Shown here: positions 32,175 through 54,008 of the stretch, piece after piece
Position numbering within the stretch: position 1 is the first letter of the stretch
How the letters are laid out: every line of letters begins with the position of its first letter
Assembly (NCBI GenBank): GCA_964589735.1
Contig: CAZPUL010000015.1
Span: 11,165-75,164 of the forward strand
Direction: 5' to 3'
Origin: an uncultured Verrucomicrobiota bacterium
GTDB lineage: Bacteria; Verrucomicrobiota; Verrucomicrobiia; Limisphaerales; JAEYXS01
Length of the DNA: 64,000 nt
Translations under genes and position numbers: made by a program
Notes under the pieces: generated by a model
Database searches by the model: none
Seen by the model: only the letters and a program-made list of their open reading frames with translations
Told to the model about the DNA's origin: nothing

Positions 32175-32335
32175 GGTAGGGCCCGTCTGTCCTCAGCGGG
32201 CCGTGGTGCGGATCGAAAGGCATGTCTTGAATTTCAAAACCAGCCTTTTAAACCGCTCTCGTCGTTGGAATGTTCTCAAACTTTCGATGGATTCAGGCTT
32301 CGACAGCGGCCCGCTGAGGACAGACGGGCCCTACC
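32175..32335. repeat. 161-bp element with perfect 29-bp terminal inverted repeats (GGTAGGGCCCGTCTGTCCTCAGCGGGCCG)
   Basis: 32175-32203 is the exact reverse complement of 32307-32335. It lies between two convergent genes. Related copies are at 49003-49163 and 53861-54008. Confidence 0.9.
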
Positions 32336-33566: not shown

Positions 33567-34991
33567 TTACTCCGTCGGAGCAGCCTTCTTCACGAACGTG
33601 TGCGTGGCGTGGCCGAAGAAGACTTCGGCGCTTTCCATCAACGTCTCGGAAAGTGTCGGATGCGGATGCACTGTTTCCGCGAGGTCCGTCACCGTGGCGC
33701 CCATCTCGATGGCGAGCGTGCCTTCCGCGATGAGTTCGCCCGCGCCGTGACCCACAATGCCCACGCCGAGGATGCGCTCGGTCTCGGGATCGATGATAAG
33801 CTTCGTCAGACCATCCGGGCGATCAAAGCTCAGCGCGCGACCGGAAGCGCCCCAAGGGAACTTGGCGACCTTCACTTCGCGACCCTGCTTCTTCGCTTCC
33901 GCTTCCGTCAGACCGGCCCACGCCACTTCCGGATCGGTGAACACGACGGCGGGGATGACGATCTTCTCGAACGCGCTGTTGTGGCCCGTGATGACATCCA
34001 CCGCGATGCGTGCTTCCTTCGAGGCCTTGTGTGCCAGCATGATGCCGCCCGCGACGTCGCCGATGGCGTAAATGTTCGGGTCTTCCGTCTGCTGCTGCGC
34101 GTTGATCTTGATGAAACCTTTTTCATCGCGCGTGACCTTGGTGTTTTCCAGACCGAGGTCTTCGGCGTTCGGTCCGCGACCGACGGCGACGAGCACACGG
34201 TCATACAACTCTTCGAGCTTCTGGCCGTTCACTTCGCTCACCACTTTGATCTGCTTGCCGACGGTGGCCATGGAGAGAACCTTGGCCTTCAGACGTACTT
34301 CCTTGAACGCCTTCTTCGCGTAAGCGACCACCGGACGGGCGAGGTCGGCATCCGCACCGGCGAGGAGTGTGTCCATCGCTTCGATGACGACGACCTTGCT
34401 GCCGAGACCGGCATACACGGTGCCGAGCTCCATGCCGATGTATCCGCCGCCGACCACGAGCAAGTTCTCCGGGATGTCTTCCACTTCGAGCGCACCACGG
34501 GAGGTCATCACGCGCGGATTGCCGAGGTCGAATGCCTTGGGCAGCGTAGCACGGGAACCGACGGCGATGATCGCCTTGTCGTAGCTGATGAATTTCTGGC
34601 CCTGCTCGGTCTCCACGCGGAGCAGTTGCGAGCCCTCGAAATAACCGCGGGCGTGCATGACTTCCACACCACGCATCTTCGCGAGGGAGGCGACACCGCC
34701 GCTGAGCTTCGTGATCACGGAGTTCTTCCACTCGCGCAGCTTGTTCAGGTCGATGGTCGGCTCCGCAAACGTGATGCCGCGATGTGCGGATTCACGGGCT
34801 TCCTTGATCGCCTTCGTCGCATTGAGCAACGCCTTGGACGGGATGCAACCACGGTTCAAGCAGACGCCACCGAGCTTCGGGTCTTTCTCGATGAGGATGA
34901 CTTTCTTGCCCTGGTCCGCAGCGTAGAACGCGGCGGCATAGCCACCGGGGCCAGCGCCTACTACTACGATATCGGTCTTGATCGTTTCCAT
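33567..34991 (-). CDS. lpdA: Dihydrolipoyl dehydrogenase (E3)
   Basis: GAGPGGY FAD motif, redox-active GGVCLNRGCIPSK, and a C-terminal HPHPTLSE. Confidence 0.95.
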   Translation of the reverse strand: METIKTDIVVVGAGPGGYAAAFYAADQGKKVILIEKDPKLGGVCLNRGCIPSKALLNATKAIKEARESAHRGITFAEPTIDLNKLREWKNSVITKLSGGVASLAKMRGVEVMHARGYFEGSQLLRVETEQGQKFISYDKAIIAVGSRATLPKAFDLGNPRVMTSRGALEVEDIPENLLVVGGGYIGMELGTVYAGLGSKVVVIEAMDTLLAGADADLARPVVAYAKKAFKEVRLKAKVLSMATVGKQIKVVSEVNGQKLEELYDRVLVAVGRGPNAEDLGLENTKVTRDEKGFIKINAQQQTEDPNIYAIGDVAGGIMLAHKASKEARIAVDVITGHNSAFEKIVIPAVVFTDPEVAWAGLTEAEAKKQGREVKVAKFPWGASGRALSFDRPDGLTKLIIDPETERILGVGIVGHGAGELIAEGTLAIEMGATVTDLAETVHPHPTLSETLMESAEVFFGHATHTFVKKAAPTE

Positions 34992-35026: not shown

Positions 35027-36343
35027 TTAGAGTTTCGCGTCCGCTTCGGTGATCGCCGCGAATGCCGCAGCGAGATCCACCGTGAAGCGTGCCGCCGTGC
35101 CACCATCGATCAAGCGATGGTCGTAAGAGATGGCGATCGGCATCATCAAGCGTACTTGCACTTCTTTGCCGACGACGACCGGCTTCAATGCACCACGGCC
35201 CATGCCGAAGATGCCGACTTCCGGCTTGTTCACGATCGGCGTGAAGTGTGCCCCACCAATACCACCTTGATTGGAGATGGTGAACGTGCCGCCCTTCATG
35301 TCATCCGGCGAGAGCTTGCGATCACGCGCTTTCTTGGCGATGTCTTCGAGGTCCTTGGATATCTGGAGCAGGCTCTTCTTGTCCGCGTCGCGGATGACGG
35401 GGACCATCAGGCCGGCGTCGGTATCCACGGCGATGCCGATGTGGTAGTAATCCTTGAACACGATCTCTTCCGTGGCCTCGTCGAGGCTGGAGTTCATGAT
35501 CGGGTGCTTCTTCAACACGGCGACGAGCGCCTTGATGGCGAACGGTGTAAGCGTAAGACGTGCACCGGCCTTCTCGTAATCGGCGGCGAACTTCTTGCGC
35601 AGATCATTGAGCGCGGTGATGTCCACGTCCTCGAACTGCGTGACCTGCGGGATCGTGGTGACGCTCTCCACCATGCGGCGGCTGATGACCTTGCGGAGGC
35701 CGGACATCGGCTTCTTGGTCACGGCGCCCCATTGCGCGAAGTCGATGGATTCGACCACGGGCTTGGCCGGCGCAGCGGATGCAGCAGCGGCAGCAGCCGG
35801 AGCGGCTTTGCCCTTGGCGGCGAGCTTGATGAGTTTCTGGATGTAAGCGCGGACATCGGCCATGACCACACGGCCACCGGCTTCGCTGCCCCTCACACGG
35901 CGCAGGTCGAGACCGATCTCGCGGGCGACCTTGCGCACGGAGGGCGGCGCGGCGACTTCGGCGTCATCAATCGCTTCTTCTTCCGCGACTTCGCCGGAGT
36001 CATCGTCTTCCGCTTCGGTTTCTTCGACGACCGGGGCGGCTTTCTTCTTGGCCTTCGGTGCGGCAGCGGCTTTCGCAGCCGGAGCTTCACTGACGGCGGG
36101 AGCGGCACCCGCAGCACCTTCCAGCGTGACGATGAGCGCGCCGATGGAGATCTTGGCGCCTTCCTTCACGTGGATCTTGCTGATCACGCCATCCGCCGTG
36201 GAGGGGATGGGCGCGACGGCCTTCTCGTTCTCGAGTTCAATCAGGGTCTGGCCCTTGGTGACCTTGTCACCTTCTTTGACCAGGATCCCGACCACCACGC
36301 CGGAATCGGCACCTTCACCGAGCTTCGGTAATTTGACGTCCAT
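35027..36343 (-). CDS. aceF: Dihydrolipoamide acetyltransferase (E2)
   Basis: Lipoyl domain (LIELENEKAV...), Ala/Pro linkers, E3-binding domain, and the catalytic DHRLIDG motif. Start at MDVKLPKLGEG (36343). Confidence 0.9.
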   Translation of the reverse strand: MDVKLPKLGEGADSGVVVGILVKEGDKVTKGQTLIELENEKAVAPIPSTADGVISKIHVKEGAKISIGALIVTLEGAAGAAPAVSEAPAAKAAAAPKAKKKAAPVVEETEAEDDDSGEVAEEEAIDDAEVAAPPSVRKVAREIGLDLRRVRGSEAGGRVVMADVRAYIQKLIKLAAKGKAAPAAAAAASAAPAKPVVESIDFAQWGAVTKKPMSGLRKVISRRMVESVTTIPQVTQFEDVDITALNDLRKKFAADYEKAGARLTLTPFAIKALVAVLKKHPIMNSSLDEATEEIVFKDYYHIGIAVDTDAGLMVPVIRDADKKSLLQISKDLEDIAKKARDRKLSPDDMKGGTFTISNQGGIGGAHFTPIVNKPEVGIFGMGRGALKPVVVGKEVQVRLMMPIAISYDHRLIDGGTAARFTVDLAAAFAAITEADAKL

Positions 36344-36402
36344 AAAATTTTCGGTCTCGCTGCTAAATTGCAGCCGTATCTGTATTCTCACCCCTCACCC
36401 TG

Positions 36403-36610
36403 GCCCTCTCCCCGTTGAGGGAGAGGGAGGAGAGGCGTTAAAGCGTTCTCAACCGGCAAGGCCTTCTTAGGGCCTCACGTTCAAGCGTCGCATACGCGAC
36501 GCTAAATCTTTTTAACGCGGAAACCGTGGGTTGAAACCCACGGCTACCATCGTCTGGTGGCTACGCCACCCAAAAAACCAGCCATGTCCGACTCGCTGTG
36601 AAGCCGGACA
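36403..36610. repeat. Cluster of at least 6 hairpins (REP-like) in the aceE-aceF spacer
   Basis: Stems at 36403-26 (ccctctccc/gggagaggg), 36458-74, 36484-503 (agcgtcgc-atac-gcgacgct), 36524-43 (ccgtgggt-tgaa-acccacgg), 36556-70 (ggtggc-tac-gccacc) and 36585-610. Confidence 0.85.
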
Positions 36611-36623
36611 GGCTAACTTAAAA

Positions 36624-39386
36624 TCACAGCAGGTACGGGAACACCTTCTCCGGGTCCACGCCCATGTCTTTGATGGCCTGCGCCACTACCTTGCGCTCGA
36701 TGTCGCCGCGCTTGGCGAGGGCATACAGCGTGGCGATCACCGTGCTCTCGGCGTCCACTTCGAAGAAGCGGCGCAGGCGTTCGCGCGTGTCGCTGCGACC
36801 GAAGCCGTCCGTGCCCAAGGTGGTCAGGCCGCCCGGCACCCACGGGGCGATCTGGTCCGGCACGATCTTCATGAAATCGGACACGGCGATGAACGGGCCT
36901 TTTTCCTTCTCGAGTTCCACCTGAAACCACGGCTTCTTCGGCGTCTCTGTGGGATGCAGCATGTTCCAGCGTTCGCAACGCAGGGCTTCATTCCGCATCA
37001 GCTTGTAATTCGTGGCGCTCCAGACATCCACCGAGACGTCATACTTCTCGGCGAGGATCTTCTGGGCCTTCAGCGCAGACTGCATGATGGTGCCGCTGCC
37101 GATGATCTGCGCCTTGTGCTTCAGACCGGTCGCGCCCGTGTTAAATTTATAGAGGCCCTTGAGGATGCCTTGCTCCACGCCGGCCGGCATCGGCGGCATC
37201 GGGATGTTCTCGTTATACAGCGTCAGGTAATAGAAGATCTCTTCGCCTTCCTGATACATGCGGCGCATGCCGTCCTGCACGATGACCGCGAGCTCGTAAG
37301 CGAACGCCGGGTCATACGTCATCAGGGTCGGGATGGTGCTGGCGAGCAGGAGGCTGTGACCATCTTCGTGCTGCAGACCTTCACCGTTCAACGTCGTGCG
37401 GCCAGCGGTGGCGCCGAGCAGGAAGCCCTTGGCCTTGATGTCACCAGCGAGCCAGATCTGGTCGCCGATGCGCTGGAAGCCGAACATCGAGTAGTACGTG
37501 AAGAACGGGATCATGTTCACCCCGTGCGAGGAATACGCCGTGCCCGCCGAGATGAAGGACGAGATCGCCCCGGCCTCGGTGATGCCTTCTTCGAGGATCT
37601 GCCCGTCTTTCGCTTCCTTGTAGTAGAGGAGCGATTTGCTATCCACCGGCTCATAGAGCTGGCCCTTCGGCGAATAGATGCCGACCTCGCGGAACAGGGC
37701 ATCCATACCGAACGTGCGCGCTTCATCAGGGATGATCGGGACGACGTAGCGGCCGATCTCCTTGTTGCGCAGCAGATGCGTGAGCAGACGCACGAAGGCC
37801 ATCGTGGTGGACACTTCGCTCTCGCCGGAGCCCTTCAGGAAGTCCTTGAAGTTCTCAAGCGCGGGCGTGTTCAGCTTCGGCGCGGTGACCGTGCGCTTGG
37901 GCACGTAACCACCGAGTTCCTGGCGGCGCTTCTGGAGATACCTGATCTCCGGGCTGTCCGGCGCGGGCTTGTAGAACGGCGTTTCCGCGATCTCTTCATC
38001 GCTGATGGGGATGTTGAAACGCTTGCGGAAAATGCGGAGCTCTTTTTCGTTCAGCTTCTTCTGGCCGTGCGAGACGTTGCGGCCTTCGCCGGCTTCACCG
38101 AGACCATAGCCCTTGACCGTTTTCGCGAGCACGACCGTGGGCTGGCCCTTGTGCTCGGTGGCCGCCTTGAAAGCCGCGAACACCTTGCGCATGTCGTGAC
38201 CGCCGCGCATGAGCTTGTGCAACTGCTCGTCCGTGAGGTGATGCACCATGGCGAGCAGTTCCGGATCTTTGCCGAAGAAATTCTTGCGGATGTAGGAGCC
38301 CGGTTCGACGACGTACTTCTGATACTCGCCATCGACCACTTCTTCCATGCGCTTGCGCAGGATACCCTTCGTGTCCTTCGCGAGCAGATCATCCCAGTCC
38401 GAACCCCAGATGACCTTGATGACATTCCAGCCCGCACCGCGGAAGGCGGCTTCGAGTTCCTGGATGATCTTGCCGTTGCCGCGCACCGGGCCGTCGAGGC
38501 GCTGGAGGTTGCAATTCACGACCCAGACGAGGTTGTCCAGATGCTCGCGCGAAGCGAGCGTGAGCGCACCGAGCGTTTCCGGTTCATCGGATTCACCGTC
38601 ACCGACGAAGGCCCAGATCTTCGGCTCATGCTCCCAGTTCACGAAACCGCGCGCTTTCAGATAGCGGTTAAAACGGGCCTGGTAGATGGACATGATGGGA
38701 CCGAGCCCCATCGAGACGGTCGGAAACTGCCAGAAATCCGGCATCAGATACGGATGCGGATAAGAAGACAGACCGCCGCCTTCAGCCAGTTCCTGGCGGA
38801 AGTTATGCAGGTGCTGCTCCGTCAGGCGGCCTTCGAGATAGGCGCGGGCGTAATTGCCGGGCGTGGCGTGGCCTTGGAAATAGATCATGTCCGCCGGGCG
38901 ATCACCATCGCCTCCGCGGAAGAAATGGTTGTAGGCCACCTCGTAAAGCGTGGCCGAGGAAGCGAACGTGGAGATGTGACCGCCGAGACCGTTGTGCTTG
39001 CGGTTCGCATTCACCACCATGGCCATGGCGTTCCAGCGCAGGAGGCTCTTGATGCGGACCTCCATCTGCCAGTCACCGGGATACGGCGGCTGGTCCTCCA
39101 CCGGGATGCTGTTCACGTAGGGCGTGCTGACCGGACGGGGGGCTTTCACCCCCGCTTCTTCGAGACGTTCGAGCAGGCGCGCCAGAAAGGCATGGGCCTG
39201 TTCCGGGTTCTGTTGCGCCAGGGTGGCATCGACAAAATGCTCCAGCGCCACCAGCCATTTCTGCGCGAGGGCGTTGTTGCCGGATTTGTCTGCCGTGCCC
39301 GGGCTGGGCGCTGATTTCAAAATCTTTGTGCTCACTGCTTGTCCCGTCGTCCAAGGTTGACCAACATAGGCCCGGCGGCTGTCCAC
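36624..39386 (-). CDS. aceE: Pyruvate dehydrogenase E1 component, homodimeric type
   Basis: ~900 aa and collinear with AceE-type E1, with a TPP-binding region GDGESDEPE...NCNLQRLDG. The exact start is uncertain: ATG 39386, or GTG 39332. Confidence 0.9.
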   Translation of the reverse strand: MDSRRAYVGQPWTTGQAVSTKILKSAPSPGTADKSGNNALAQKWLVALEHFVDATLAQQNPEQAHAFLARLLERLEEAGVKAPRPVSTPYVNSIPVEDQPPYPGDWQMEVRIKSLLRWNAMAMVVNANRKHNGLGGHISTFASSATLYEVAYNHFFRGGDGDRPADMIYFQGHATPGNYARAYLEGRLTEQHLHNFRQELAEGGGLSSYPHPYLMPDFWQFPTVSMGLGPIMSIYQARFNRYLKARGFVNWEHEPKIWAFVGDGESDEPETLGALTLASREHLDNLVWVVNCNLQRLDGPVRGNGKIIQELEAAFRGAGWNVIKVIWGSDWDDLLAKDTKGILRKRMEEVVDGEYQKYVVEPGSYIRKNFFGKDPELLAMVHHLTDEQLHKLMRGGHDMRKVFAAFKAATEHKGQPTVVLAKTVKGYGLGEAGEGRNVSHGQKKLNEKELRIFRKRFNIPISDEEIAETPFYKPAPDSPEIRYLQKRRQELGGYVPKRTVTAPKLNTPALENFKDFLKGSGESEVSTTMAFVRLLTHLLRNKEIGRYVVPIIPDEARTFGMDALFREVGIYSPKGQLYEPVDSKSLLYYKEAKDGQILEEGITEAGAISSFISAGTAYSSHGVNMIPFFTYYSMFGFQRIGDQIWLAGDIKAKGFLLGATAGRTTLNGEGLQHEDGHSLLLASTIPTLMTYDPAFAYELAVIVQDGMRRMYQEGEEIFYYLTLYNENIPMPPMPAGVEQGILKGLYKFNTGATGLKHKAQIIGSGTIMQSALKAQKILAEKYDVSVDVWSATNYKLMRNEALRCERWNMLHPTETPKKPWFQVELEKEKGPFIAVSDFMKIVPDQIAPWVPGGLTTLGTDGFGRSDTRERLRRFFEVDAESTVIATLYALAKRGDIERKVVAQAIKDMGVDPEKVFPYLL

Positions 39387-48744: not shown

Positions 48745-48990
48745 GGGCGTTCCGTCGCAAAGCCCAACGTTGCCGCGCGGCAGCGAGGCTACGTTGGGTC
48801 ATCGCGTTGTTTTGTCACAACCCCGAAGTGGGTTGCGTCGGTTGGCTCGCAAGTGTAATGCGGGTTTGCCAATCATGGCCGGGGACGCAACCACGTTGTG
48901 GTTGGGTGATTCTTTTTTCACGTTACCCAACGTAGGCCCGCAAGCAAGCGGGCCGACGTTGGGCTTTGTTACGCAGCCCCGTTGGGGCTG
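48745..48990. repeat. Dense hairpin cluster (CCCAACGT...ACGTTGGG family)
   Basis: Stems at 48763-98 (with the inner palindrome tgccgcgcggca), 48818-35, 48888-904, 48926-63 (nested cccaacgt/ggcccgc) and 48974-90. Confidence 0.8.
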
Positions 48991-49002
48991 ACCACCTAGC
49001 CA

Positions 49003-50201: not shown

Positions 50202-50987
50202 TCACAGATCTTCACGCTTCGGAAGCATTGCTTCGCGATAGCGCAAGTATTCTCGATCCAGTTGAGGATCCTTGGTATCGAAGAAGTTCAAACGCCAGGT
50301 GCAACTGGCCGCACCTGCGGCGATGAGCTGGCCATCCCGGCTCACCACAGAGAAGCTGGTGAATCCACCACCTCCCGTTCGGTGCTTTTTGTCATAGCGG
50401 AGAATAGTGTAACGGCCAAATGCATCACTCTCAGTCGGCGGATGCACGCGGGCCAGTTCAGCAGCGGAATCTCCGAGCGAGAATTGGCGGCAGGCGAAAG
50501 CGCGCCAGACCGGATGACATTCCGCAGCCATGCCACGATAAGCATCCACATCGGCTACGCTCGTGATCCGCAAGAGGACGCCCAGAAATAATAACAGCGC
50601 GAGACAGGTGCCGCCTGCATAGGTAGAGAAACGGAATTTGCGGAAGGCCCATAAACGTCGCGGAGTGAGCAATTTTCCCAGTGTGATGCCCGGACCATGG
50701 CGTCGCACCAAACGTGGATACACCCAACGTGCATACATTAGTACGCCGATGCCTTGCAGTAGCCAGCCAAGGAAAGAAGTCAGTCCGAACAGCGCCAACG
50801 CGATCGGGAGCACTACGCGTATGCCTTCGTGTAAGCTCCCTTGTTCAGCAGGATCAAAGAAGTCTTCGGCGAAGGCATAGAAATCAAAGGGCGGTAACCA
50901 GAGCAAGGCGAACAGCACCAGCGTAAGCATAACCCAAGCGGTTTTGTTTACTGGCCACAGAGAAAACAGGTGAAGCAGTTTGCGCAT
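50202..50987 (-). CDS. Hypothetical membrane protein with a C-terminal soluble domain
   Basis: Start taken at MRKLLHLFSLWPV (50987). The upstream 40 codons of the ORF translate the repeat element (MASRGFQPTV...). Confidence 0.5.
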   Translation of the reverse strand: MRKLLHLFSLWPVNKTAWVMLTLVLFALLWLPPFDFYAFAEDFFDPAEQGSLHEGIRVVLPIALALFGLTSFLGWLLQGIGVLMYARWVYPRLVRRHGPGITLGKLLTPRRLWAFRKFRFSTYAGGTCLALLLFLGVLLRITSVADVDAYRGMAAECHPVWRAFACRQFSLGDSAAELARVHPPTESDAFGRYTILRYDKKHRTGGGGFTSFSVVSRDGQLIAAGAASCTWRLNFFDTKDPQLDREYLRYREAMLPKREDL

Positions 50988-51043
50988 GGGATTGCAAAAG
51001 ATTAGACCGCTGCTAGCCAAGAACCGCACGTTGAATGATTCAG

Positions 51044-51132
51044 CCGTCACTACGTGACGGAGTGTTTTGTATCGCGTGACCGTGGGTTGAAACCCACGGC
51101 TAGCCATCGGTGTTCGCTACGCGAACTTTTTT
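51044..51132. repeat. Three-hairpin repeat element (second copy)
   Basis: ccgtcac-tac-gtgacgg (51044-60), ccgtgggt-tgaa-acccacgg (51080-99) and gttcgc-tac-gcgaac (51112-26), then a T6 run. It matches the architecture at 36484-36577. Confidence 0.85.
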
Positions 51133-51156
51133 GGTTCGTGCCAATCTGGGAAATTC

Positions 51157-51510
51157 GTGGCTTCCCATTCCGGCCTCTTCCTAGTTTCCCTCGGCTGGCC
51201 TCCTGTGATAGCGTGGGGCTCGCTCGAATGGGCGGCGGGGTGGGTGACTATAAAAATCATCATCGTCGGGCTATTGGTTCTGCTCGGTGTGGGCATGATC
51301 GCGCTCGCGCCGATGGTGGATAGGTACGTGGGCGAATCCACCTTTGGAATCAAGTTGCCGCAGCGGACCGGTTCCACGCAGCCCGCGCAGGAGCATCAAG
51401 TGACAGCAACGCTTGCTCGGATTATGCGAGTGGTGGGCTGGTTGTTGATTTTATCCGGTTTAGGAATCGGTTTGCTATGGCGTGTCAAAGCGCCGATTGA
51501 TTCGTTGTAA
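51157..51510 (+). CDS. Hypothetical small membrane protein
   Basis: 117-aa ORF with two hydrophobic helices (IKIIIVGLLVLLGVGMIALAP and VVGWLLILSGLGIGLLW). Start is uncertain. Confidence 0.4.
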   Translation: MASHSGLFLVSLGWPPVIAWGSLEWAAGWVTIKIIIVGLLVLLGVGMIALAPMVDRYVGESTFGIKLPQRTGSTQPAQEHQVTATLARIMRVVGWLLILSGLGIGLLWRVKAPIDSL

Positions 51511-53860: not shown

Positions 53861-54008
53861 GGGGACCGTCTGTCCTCAGCGGGCCGGGGTCCGGTAACGT
53901 AGCGCATACCCGAGGAACCGAGTCGTAAGCGCCAGACTTCACCTTGCTTTGATTCCCTTGTTCACCCTTGGCTTCGACGCGGCGCGCTGAGGACAGCGCC
54001 GCCCTACC
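53861..54008. repeat. Degenerate copy of the GGTAGGG...CCCTACC inverted-repeat element
   Basis: Left arm ggggaccgtctgtcctcagcgggccg and right arm ggcgcgctgaggacagcgccgccctacc. The right-arm context ggcttcgac...gctgaggacag...ccctacc matches 32298-32335. Confidence 0.7.

Follow-up and report, generated by a model that had tools for sequence, protein, structure and literature searches.

Two three-hairpin units and their genes

The stretch of DNA considered here, referred to below as the window, comprises 64,000 nucleotides (nt) from an uncultured Verrucomicrobiota bacterium (Verrucomicrobiia, Limisphaerales, JAEYXS01; assembly GCA_964589735.1, contig CAZPUL010000015.1, positions 11,165 to 75,164 of the forward strand) and carries two copies of a composite palindromic unit made of three hairpins (Table 1). 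Copy 1 occupies the spacer between aceE and aceF, the genes encoding E1 and E2 of pyruvate dehydrogenase (PDH), in a minus-strand operon that continues with lpd (E3), and copy 2 is located between divergent genes and not in an operon; both copies are intergenic singletons. An earlier note on this DNA, made from the letters alone, had described the three-hairpin layout with the coordinates, loops and spacers of both copies, and all of these were exact in the sequence, as was the placement of copy 1 inside the aceE-aceF spacer, where it would be co-transcribed with the operon. Given that copy 1 as written lies on the + strand, the operon mRNA would carry its reverse complement.

Hairpin 1 reads AGCGTCGC-ATAC-GCGACGCT in copy 1 and CCGTCAC-TAC-GTGACGG in copy 2, and is separated from hairpin 2, the core of the unit, by 20 nt in the former and 19 nt in the latter. 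The core, CCGTGGGTTGAAACCCACGG, is the same letter for letter in both copies. It is followed by a linker of the CTA(G)CCATCG type (CTACCATCG in copy 1, CTAGCCATCG in copy 2) and by hairpin 3, which is GGTGGC-TAC-GCCACC in copy 1 and GTTCGC-TAC-GCGAAC in copy 2. The identity of the 20-nt core, already pointed out in the earlier note, is above chance, as about 0.01 matches are expected in the window and four matches were reached in 0 of 100 shuffles. What the earlier note had overlooked is a conserved TTCA, which in each copy lies on the immediate 5' side of hairpin 1. When folded and compared with dinucleotide shuffles, copy 1 gave z = -5.9 on the minus strand and -5.6 on the plus strand, and the fold of copy 2 was weaker (z about -3).

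A covariance model (R1) was built on 91 copies, the two of the window and 89 from other genomes; applied to the window it recovered only the two known copies, both on the + strand, and a weak match at 48876-49002 (15 bits, E 0.085) was taken as noise. Neither window copy was found to have an adjacent promoter-like site. Hairpin 1 of both copies and hairpin 3 of copy 2 precede T-rich tails on the + strand; no terminator-like hairpin with a T-run was detected on the minus strand, that of the PDH operon, such sites being present on the + strand of the window only. GC skew over the window gave no usable replication-strand signal.

Table 1. Coordinates of the repeat units and of the features around them. 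The bit scores of the units refer to the covariance model R1 (see text); ORF, open reading frame; aa, amino acids.
Feature	Position	Strand	Details
Repeat unit, copy 1	36480-36570	+	TTCA 36480-36483; hairpin 1 36484-36503; spacer 36504-36523; core (hairpin 2) 36524-36543; CTA linker 36544-36555; hairpin 3 36556-36570; R1 match 36473-36583, 91.1 bits
Repeat unit, copy 2	51039-51126	+	TTCA 51039-51042; hairpin 1 51044-51060; 19-nt spacer; core (hairpin 2) 51080-51099; CTAG linker; hairpin 3 51112-51126; R1 match 51032-51139, 81.6 bits
aceE (pyruvate dehydrogenase E1)	36624-39386	-	NCBIfam TIGR00759, 1360 bits; stop codon 36624-36626
aceF (E2)	35027-36343	-	NCBIfam; start by homologues (433-439 aa, covering 96% of the longer ORF)
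lpd (E3), third gene of the operon	33567-34991	-	NCBIfam TIGR01350, 501 bits
Extra spacer DNA	36344-36475		About 110 nt from the unit to the aceF start; distinct from the unit
Short insertion after the aceE stop	36577-36620		9-bp inverted repeat 36585-36593 / 36602-36610; not part of the unit
Membrane-protein gene	50202-50987	-	Transcribed away from copy 2; likely start; listed ORF runs to 51107
Small conserved membrane ORF	51244-51510	+	Alignment with L136 and L137; upstream of mnmG (start 51545)

The homologues place the start of aceF at ATG 36343, within a conserved start motif (ATGGACGTCAAATTACC), and not at GTG 36391, so that the aceE-aceF spacer extends over 36344-36623 (280 nt). At the second locus, the ORF listed at 50202-51107 is extended by 40 codons (50988-51107) that run through copy 2, and its peptide GFQPTV is the translated core hairpin; judging from the reading frame, the true start of this membrane-protein gene is likely Met41 at 50987. 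Units of this kind extend ORFs and can thereby corrupt or inflate gene calls. On the other side, about 118 nt separate the end of copy 2 from the small downstream ORF at 51244. In a relative recognized by its MnmG (93% identical) the small upstream ORF is present and the repeat unit is absent; the synteny upstream of the small ORF differs in this relative, which indicates a lineage-specific presence of copy 2 and gives no clean empty site.

A dispersed repeat family overlapping Acido-Lenti-1

An exact search for the 20-nt core, with one genome per species, returned at least 120 loci, distributed in Acidobacteriota (Blastocatellia, Pyrinomonadaceae, Chloracidobacterium), Verrucomicrobiota, Planctomycetota and a few other phyla. 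Among the matches listed, 152 copies were readable with their flanks, and the three-hairpin layout was observed in nearly all of them. The unit of about 95 nt comprises, in order, (T)TCA; hairpin 1, with cGTCGC-TAC/TGAC/TCC-GCGACg as consensus; a spacer ranging over 15-24 nt; the core CCGTGGGT-TGAA-ACCCACGG; CTA with a short linker; and hairpin 3, with GTCGC-TAC-GCGAC as consensus. The core followed by CTA was also detected in three contigs classed as viral (L138-L143, IMG/VR), with several copies in each, six of them in a 47-kb contig, and with inverted doublets included; these contigs could be prophage regions or misclassified host DNA.

In the alignment of 91 copies, 13 of the 15 base pairs of hairpins 1 and 3 showed two-sided changes (184 cells), a value that none of 500 shuffles equalled and that slid controls, at 13-53 cells, did not approach. 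Hairpin 2 is invariant in this alignment because the search was seeded on the core; copies found by profile display compensatory changes in the core stem as well (CCGTGGGC/GCCCACGG and CCGTGGCG/CGCCACGG). The collection, alignment and modelling of further copies, which the earlier note had proposed as a check, thus yielded compensatory change in hairpins 1 and 3 and not random stem disruption. The reading of the covarying stems as a sign of selection on structure was sustained in so far as compensatory changes occur family-wide and the orthologues of the PDH copy keep their hairpins (see below); as a proof of an RNA element, covariation does not suffice, since hairpins of single-stranded DNA recognized by a Y1 enzyme leave an equal covariation signature. 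The proposal that the covariation denotes an RNA element made for the PDH operon found no support, as the unit is found in unrelated intergenic contexts of several phyla, shows no orientation bias and forms doublets that flank a transposase gene.

At gathering thresholds no Rfam family was detected in the window. When searched by E-value, the Acido-Lenti-1 motif (RF01687) matched copy 1 at 36524-36570 with 23.5 bits (E about 1e-3), below its gathering cutoff of 37, and gave no match to copy 2. In copy 1, the stretch from hairpin 2 through the CUA linker to hairpin 3 aligns with the full length of the model (positions 1-46), all pairs being formed, and the cutoff was passed by four copies from other genomes that have the identical core (37.2-40.3 bits), one of which abuts a transposase gene. 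The comparison with Rfam, another of the checks proposed beforehand, led to a family that covers hairpins 2 and 3 and for which the window copies score below the cutoff.

Acido-Lenti-1 was described by Weinberg et al. in 2010 in Acidobacteria and Lentisphaerae, with 89 representatives, as a likely RNA on the basis of covariation, with function unknown and a location that is sometimes near group II introns (PMC2864571); its seed sequences share the layout and differ in their stem sequences (PMC2864571 supplement), and Rfam types the family as Gene; sRNA, that is, a small RNA (sRNA) gene. It resembles the present family in the 8-bp hairpin with a 4-nt loop, the CUA, the linker of about 9 nt and the 5-6-bp hairpin with a 3-nt loop, as well as in the occurrence of several copies per genome, the distribution in Acidobacteria and the PVC (Planctomycetes, Verrucomicrobia, Chlamydiae) group, and the orphan function. 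It differs in that the Rfam motif contains two of the three hairpins only and lacks hairpin 1, TTCA and the spacer, and in that it is typed as an sRNA gene, with a link to a transposase or to inverted doublets unreported. As regards group II introns, no reverse transcriptase was found among the recurrent neighbours of the units in the listed loci. The window element is a sub-threshold relative of this catalogued orphan motif, and the family overlaps RF01687.

A profile search of the listed loci (about 0.8 Mb) recovered 203 units, 66 of them singletons. Adjacent pairs separated by less than 60 nt were predominantly head-to-head, with hairpin 1 facing hairpin 1 (62 of 71 close pairs, versus 5 tail-to-tail and 3 in the same orientation); seven other head-to-head pairs had gaps of 449-481 nt, the size of the transposase gene (tnpA) described in the next section, and up to six units were present within some 8-kb loci. 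According to a crude gene call, the singletons flanked by co-directional genes are sense in 14 cases and antisense in 16; another 13 are bordered by convergent genes and 5 by divergent ones, and 3 fall within ORFs. The similar numbers in sense and antisense indicate no orientation preference relative to genes. Family-wide, stem mispairs were of the G-T type in 28 cases and of the A-C type in 31, so neither strand is favoured, and a run of at least four T after hairpin 1 was seen in 15 of 91 members. The orientation, mispair and T-run counts argue against a family-wide RNA function of the sense strand and against terminators, and fit hairpins that act as DNA.

Read on the reverse strand, the core is preceded by GTAG (GTAG-CCGTGGG) where the linker is CTAC, as in about half of the copies, copy 1 included, by TTAG where the linker is of the CTAA type, and by CTAG in copy 2; GTAG also appears on this strand in the loops of hairpins 1 and 3. 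Arrays of units in the same orientation, with a spacing of about 93-200 nt, were also observed (L081 1700-2870, L042 6480-6830 and L005 3690-3900). They are unexplained by a model based on doublets and recall the Acido-Lenti-1 seed copies located about 200 nt apart in Lentisphaera (PMC2864571 supplement).

A Y1 HUH transposase beside the units

Clustering of all ORFs with 90 aa or more in the listed loci identified one specifically recurrent neighbour, a protein of about 150 aa present in at least 13 loci; by tblastn it was detected, intact or degraded, in at least 16. The other recurrent clusters correspond to generic paralogue families. The protein is a transposase of the Y1 HUH type (Pfam PF01797, 98-100 bits) that passes the NCBIfam IS200/IS605 model NF033573 (72-80 bits, cutoff 55), and identity among the recovered transposases is 51-68%. 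An alignment of eleven of these proteins, each 150 aa long, shows [DN]H[VI]H, WQDGY and YIxNQxxHH as common motifs, with H55, H57, W95-Q-D-G-Y99, Y115-I116, Q119 and H122-H123 invariant, and a C-terminal tail in which F128, E131, H139 and Y147 are conserved.

In L003, L005, L050, L054 (twice), L077 and L105 the transposase gene, in either orientation, is enclosed by two inverted units whose hairpin 1 comes within 0-19 nt of it. Variants of this arrangement occur in L027, L033, L064, L085 and L095, and in the last three the gene is placed between two doublets. In the units that flank the transposase the TTCA is on the gene-proximal side of the hairpins. The arrangement of units and transposase is the architecture of repetitive extragenic palindromic (REP) sequences or REPINs with their transposase, and not that of an RNA gene. 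In L054 (3800-5810), two divergent transposase paralogues lie less than 2 kb apart, each with its own inverted units, and the cores flanking them share their stems and differ in their loops.

Y1 transposases have been divided into classes (PMC6006769), and two architectures that combine them with repeats, REPtrons and TIRtrons, have been described (PMC3733652). Members of TnpA-Y1 subclass 1.2 have a median length of 148 aa and low copy number, are listed as "REP: no" and are found mainly in Cyanobacteria and Bacteroidetes (PMC6006769); they are close to IS200 transposases, without the properties of insertion sequences (IS), and have the motifs DH[IV]H, WQ and YIKNQKEHH and a conserved C-terminal tail (PMC6006769 Table 1). 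By motif comparison only, the transposase of the present loci carries this signature, in its length of about 148-150 aa, the HuH motif [DN]H[VI]H, WQ, YIxNQxxHH and a C-terminal tail of about 30 residues (PMC6006769). It differs from the described members in that its genes are found in Acidobacteriota, Verrucomicrobiota and Planctomycetota, tightly flanked by inverted units.

Class 3 enzymes and TIRtrons resemble the present system in the tyrosine transposase gene, the long inverted repeats with self-complementary tracts and the phyla concerned, as well as in the presence of repeats as singles, dimers and groups in the genome (PMC3733652; PMC6006769); class 3 repeats reach about 600 copies in Solibacter usitatus (PMC3733652; PMC6006769). 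A class 3 assignment was rejected, as the W[TA] and YV..EQ motifs of class 3 proteins and their CnGA foot were not seen here. Most TIRYT proteins have helix-turn-helix tails, and on the lack of these an assignment to this group was likewise rejected.

The family also resembles REP, BIME and REPIN sequences. In both cases short extragenic palindromes are present in many copies across loci, predominantly as head-to-head inverted doublets (PMC3733652, PMC3116915, PMC8266576), and, as in REPtrons, a Y1 HUH gene is flanked by inverted repeat copies while the repeats far outnumber the genes (PMC3733652, PMC3116915, PMC6006769). The GTAG ahead of the reverse-strand core hairpin in about half of the copies may correspond to the GT[AG]G tetranucleotide at the 5' foot of REP hairpins. 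The persistence of copies at orthologous sites is a further REP trait, and REPs can act on operon mRNAs. The differences are also considerable, since the unit here is a composite of three hairpins and about 95 nt whereas a REP is one hairpin of 20-40 nt, its 20-nt core is identical across phyla, and the transposase is devoid of the class 2 Y---NP motif and fails the REP_Tyr_transpos model.

Based on this evidence, the element is likely a unit of a high-copy, mostly intergenic, REP/REPIN-like family of palindromic DNA repeats tied to a Y1 HUH transposase. In a mechanism modelled on IS608, ISDra2 and E. coli TnpA-REP (PMC8266576), the hairpins would extrude on single-stranded DNA, where the Y1 transposase would bind them and cut and rejoin the strand at short motifs beside the stems, for which TTCA and CTA are candidates; this cutting and rejoining would copy or move the units. 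Only copies with intact stems would stay recognizable to the enzyme, and this would produce the compensatory covariation. Both window copies are non-autonomous singletons, and copy 1 sits in the orientation that leaves no terminator-like hairpin with a T-run on the sense strand of the operon. Family membership, architecture, covariation, the association with the transposase and persistence at the orthologous site were observed; that this particular transposase mobilises the units, where it would cleave them and whether the operon is affected are matters of inference.

Several observations weigh against this interpretation. A 20-nt core identical across phyla is unusual, REPs tending to be lineage-specific, and no clean pair of filled and empty sites was recovered, so that mobility and the ends of the unit are putative. 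The transposase reaches only 24 bits with the NCBIfam REP_Tyr_transpos model NF047646 (cutoff 80), its tyrosine motif is Y---Q--HH and not the Y---NP of the REP-associated class 2, and its closest solved structures are 2FYX, 2A6M and 2XM3 (IS608, ISDra2 and related IS200/IS605 transposases), with no TnpA-REP among the matches in the PDB. The authors who defined subclass 1.2 report no associated repeats (PMC6006769). By tblastn, no such transposase gene was found in the window, which is the part of the source genome that was searched, and a cognate enzyme in the source organism is therefore assumed. Finally, the persistence of the hairpins at the PDH locus (next section) needs more than mobilisation, either local selection or templated correction of palindromes.

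We lean towards the view that Acido-Lenti-1 is not an sRNA and belongs instead to a REPIN-like repeat of three hairpins that spans phyla and is serviced by subclass 1.2 Y1 transposases. The three-hairpin composite, the core shared across phyla and the involvement of a Y1 subclass for which the literature searched reports no repeats are new here. If the interpretation is correct, it would provide an origin and a likely mechanism for an Rfam family that has remained functionless since 2010, and a substrate for proteins described as repeat-less, and Acidobacteriota, Verrucomicrobiota and Planctomycetota would join the phyla with REPIN-like systems, here with an unusually complex unit conserved across phyla. 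It would also illustrate that covariation of hairpins is no proof of an RNA gene.

The aceE-aceF copy and other explanations

At the same site of the aceE-aceF spacer, and always antisense to the operon, the unit is present in seven relatives (L121, L122, L123/L124, L133, L132, L134 and L127) whose AceF proteins are 85-93% identical. The spacer measures 114-135 nt and consists almost wholly of the unit in six of the seven; in L132 it is 316 nt long and includes extra insertions. More distant relatives lack it: L125 (AceF 81%) has a spacer of 59 nt without the unit, and L126 (AceF 68%) one of 202 nt with an inverted doublet of a different hairpin. A metagenome scan with the aceF start motif gave two relevant contigs, both from the species of L127, and two others that are chance matches. 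Copy 1 was inserted long ago into the aceE-aceF spacer of a lineage of Verrucomicrobiae, the group in which AceF homologues place the window, and has been vertically inherited.

The doublet of L126 (1299-1500) is formed by the hairpin GCAGGTTGGAAACCTGC, which has a similar GGTTgAAACC centre and is followed by ATA and a second hairpin; this hairpin may belong to a sister family established in the equivalent spacer.

Identity at the four-fold-degenerate sites of aceE, aceF and lpd amounts to 0.69-0.78 when the window is compared with three unit-bearing relatives, and the identity of the whole unit to the window copy is 0.64-0.77 (0.79-0.88 in its central part), which suggests that the unit sequence is diverging at about the rate of synonymous sites. 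Despite this divergence the three-hairpin fold is retained by all orthologues (z = -4.9 to -5.9), and R1 scores fall to 31.7-54 bits in most relatives. The 16 stem positions of the core are invariant among the orthologues and its loop is variable. Hairpins 1 and 3 show compensatory drift (GTGGC/GCCAC versus GCGGC/GCCGC; GCGTCGC/GCGACGC versus GCATCGC/GCGATGC or GGCGGC/GCCGCC), and this departure from the family consensus with the pairing kept argues against repeated re-insertion or conversion from other copies. The hairpins that persist in diverging PDH copies fit selection on structure, and the drift is the best evidence at this locus for this idea of the earlier note.

Since its hairpins have persisted, copy 1 may have gained a secondary role in the operon transcript, as REPs have in some E. 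coli operons. Copy 1 could now be a structured intercistronic RNA within the aceE-aceF-lpd transcript, read on the minus strand, that blocks 3'-5' exonucleases, directs processing or tunes E1 relative to E2, an explanation which is compatible with an origin as a mobile DNA repeat and which we regard as doubtful. In its more specific form, namely that the copy was co-opted as a structured element setting E1:E2 expression and has been kept by compensatory evolution over about 25-30% synonymous divergence, the proposal is equally tentative. It is favoured by the fact that the unit fills nearly the whole spacer in six of the seven relatives and is antisense in all, by the three hairpins retained at synonymous-rate divergence and by the drift of hairpins 1 and 3 with pairing kept. 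In addition, T.G wobble intermediates on the mRNA-sense strand were found in L122, L123/L133, L121 and L127, and in the PDH orthologues the sense strand folds better by 5-10 kcal/mol, with an extended core helix.

This strand asymmetry was given little weight, as the z-scores of both strands are alike, the family as a whole has a fold bias of 2.4 kcal/mol in the same direction, and the eight orthologues are not independent. The absence of any family-wide orientation preference relative to genes also speaks against the RNA role, and L125 manages with its short, unit-free spacer. Moreover, template-switch (quasi-palindrome) correction can keep DNA hairpins perfect in the absence of selection. 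The PDH copy offers a concrete and testable case of a mobile palindrome kept for a long time inside an operon of central metabolism.

A different account of the transposase loci is that the gene with its two flanking units is an ordinary IS200/IS605 element that moves as a whole, the doublets and singletons being deletion derivatives similar to miniature inverted-repeat transposable elements (MITEs). The proteins pass the IS200/IS605 model and have the IS608 and ISDra2 transposases as closest solved structures, the doublets resemble the gene-bearing element minus its gene, and the system is common to several phyla, which suggests horizontal transfer. Likewise, both share the Y1 HUH fold family, a presumed recognition of single-stranded hairpins and short motifs beside these. 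However, an IS200/IS605 element is bounded by two dissimilar ends that lie on one strand, has no inverted repeats and carries its gene along with the ends, whereas here the flanks are inverted copies of one unit, with the gene placed either way, and most copies are gene-less, the units far outnumbering the genes. The moderate identity among the transposases (51-68%), which are not near-identical copies, the two divergent paralogues side by side in L054 and the TTCA conserved on the gene-proximal side are further arguments against this account, which we judge unlikely.

That the units are genes for a trans-acting small RNA, as the Rfam type of Acido-Lenti-1 implies, is very improbable. The strong covariation and the rating as a likely RNA, itself made on covariation (PMC2864571), are in its favour. 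Against it are the occurrence of units in either orientation relative to the neighbouring genes and mostly as inverted doublets, the tight flanking of a transposase gene, stems that show no wobble asymmetry between strands, the lack of a promoter-like site beside the window copies and the presence of up to six copies per 8-kb locus, which is atypical of sRNA genes. Intrinsic terminators that happen to be repeated are the least credible explanation, as the T-rich tails noted on the + strand of the window copies have a counterpart in few family members, the terminator-like strand of copy 1 is antisense to the operon with no + strand gene upstream, and the invariance of the core hairpin, the inverted doublets and the link to a transposase would be left unexplained.

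Regarding the DNA that surrounds copy 1, the stretch 36344-36475 includes the palindrome CCTCTCCC-N6-GGGAGAGG (36405-36426), followed by GGGCCAGGGTGAGGGG on the operon strand, with a single occurrence in the window. This DNA is absent from L121, L122, L123, L133, L127 and L134 and among the orthologous spacers is present only in L132; it looks like a later insertion of a separate palindromic element unrelated to the repeat unit. The insertion at 36577-36620 is missing from most orthologous spacers, and L132 and L127/L134 differ in sequence at that position. The window and L132 have thus gained further, unrelated palindromic insertions in the aceE-aceF spacer. In L125 (2282-2713) and L126 (2847-3293) a small gene with a Pfam 23S_rRNA_IVP domain is located between aceF and lpd, and it is absent from the window and the closer relatives.

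A second repeat family was noticed in the window, CCGTCTGTCCTCAGCGGGCC, with three exact copies at 32183-32202 (+), 32308-32327 (-) and 53866-53885 (+). The first two copies form an inverted doublet between convergent genes, and the first follows GATGGTAG, a GTAG tag like that of classical REPs.

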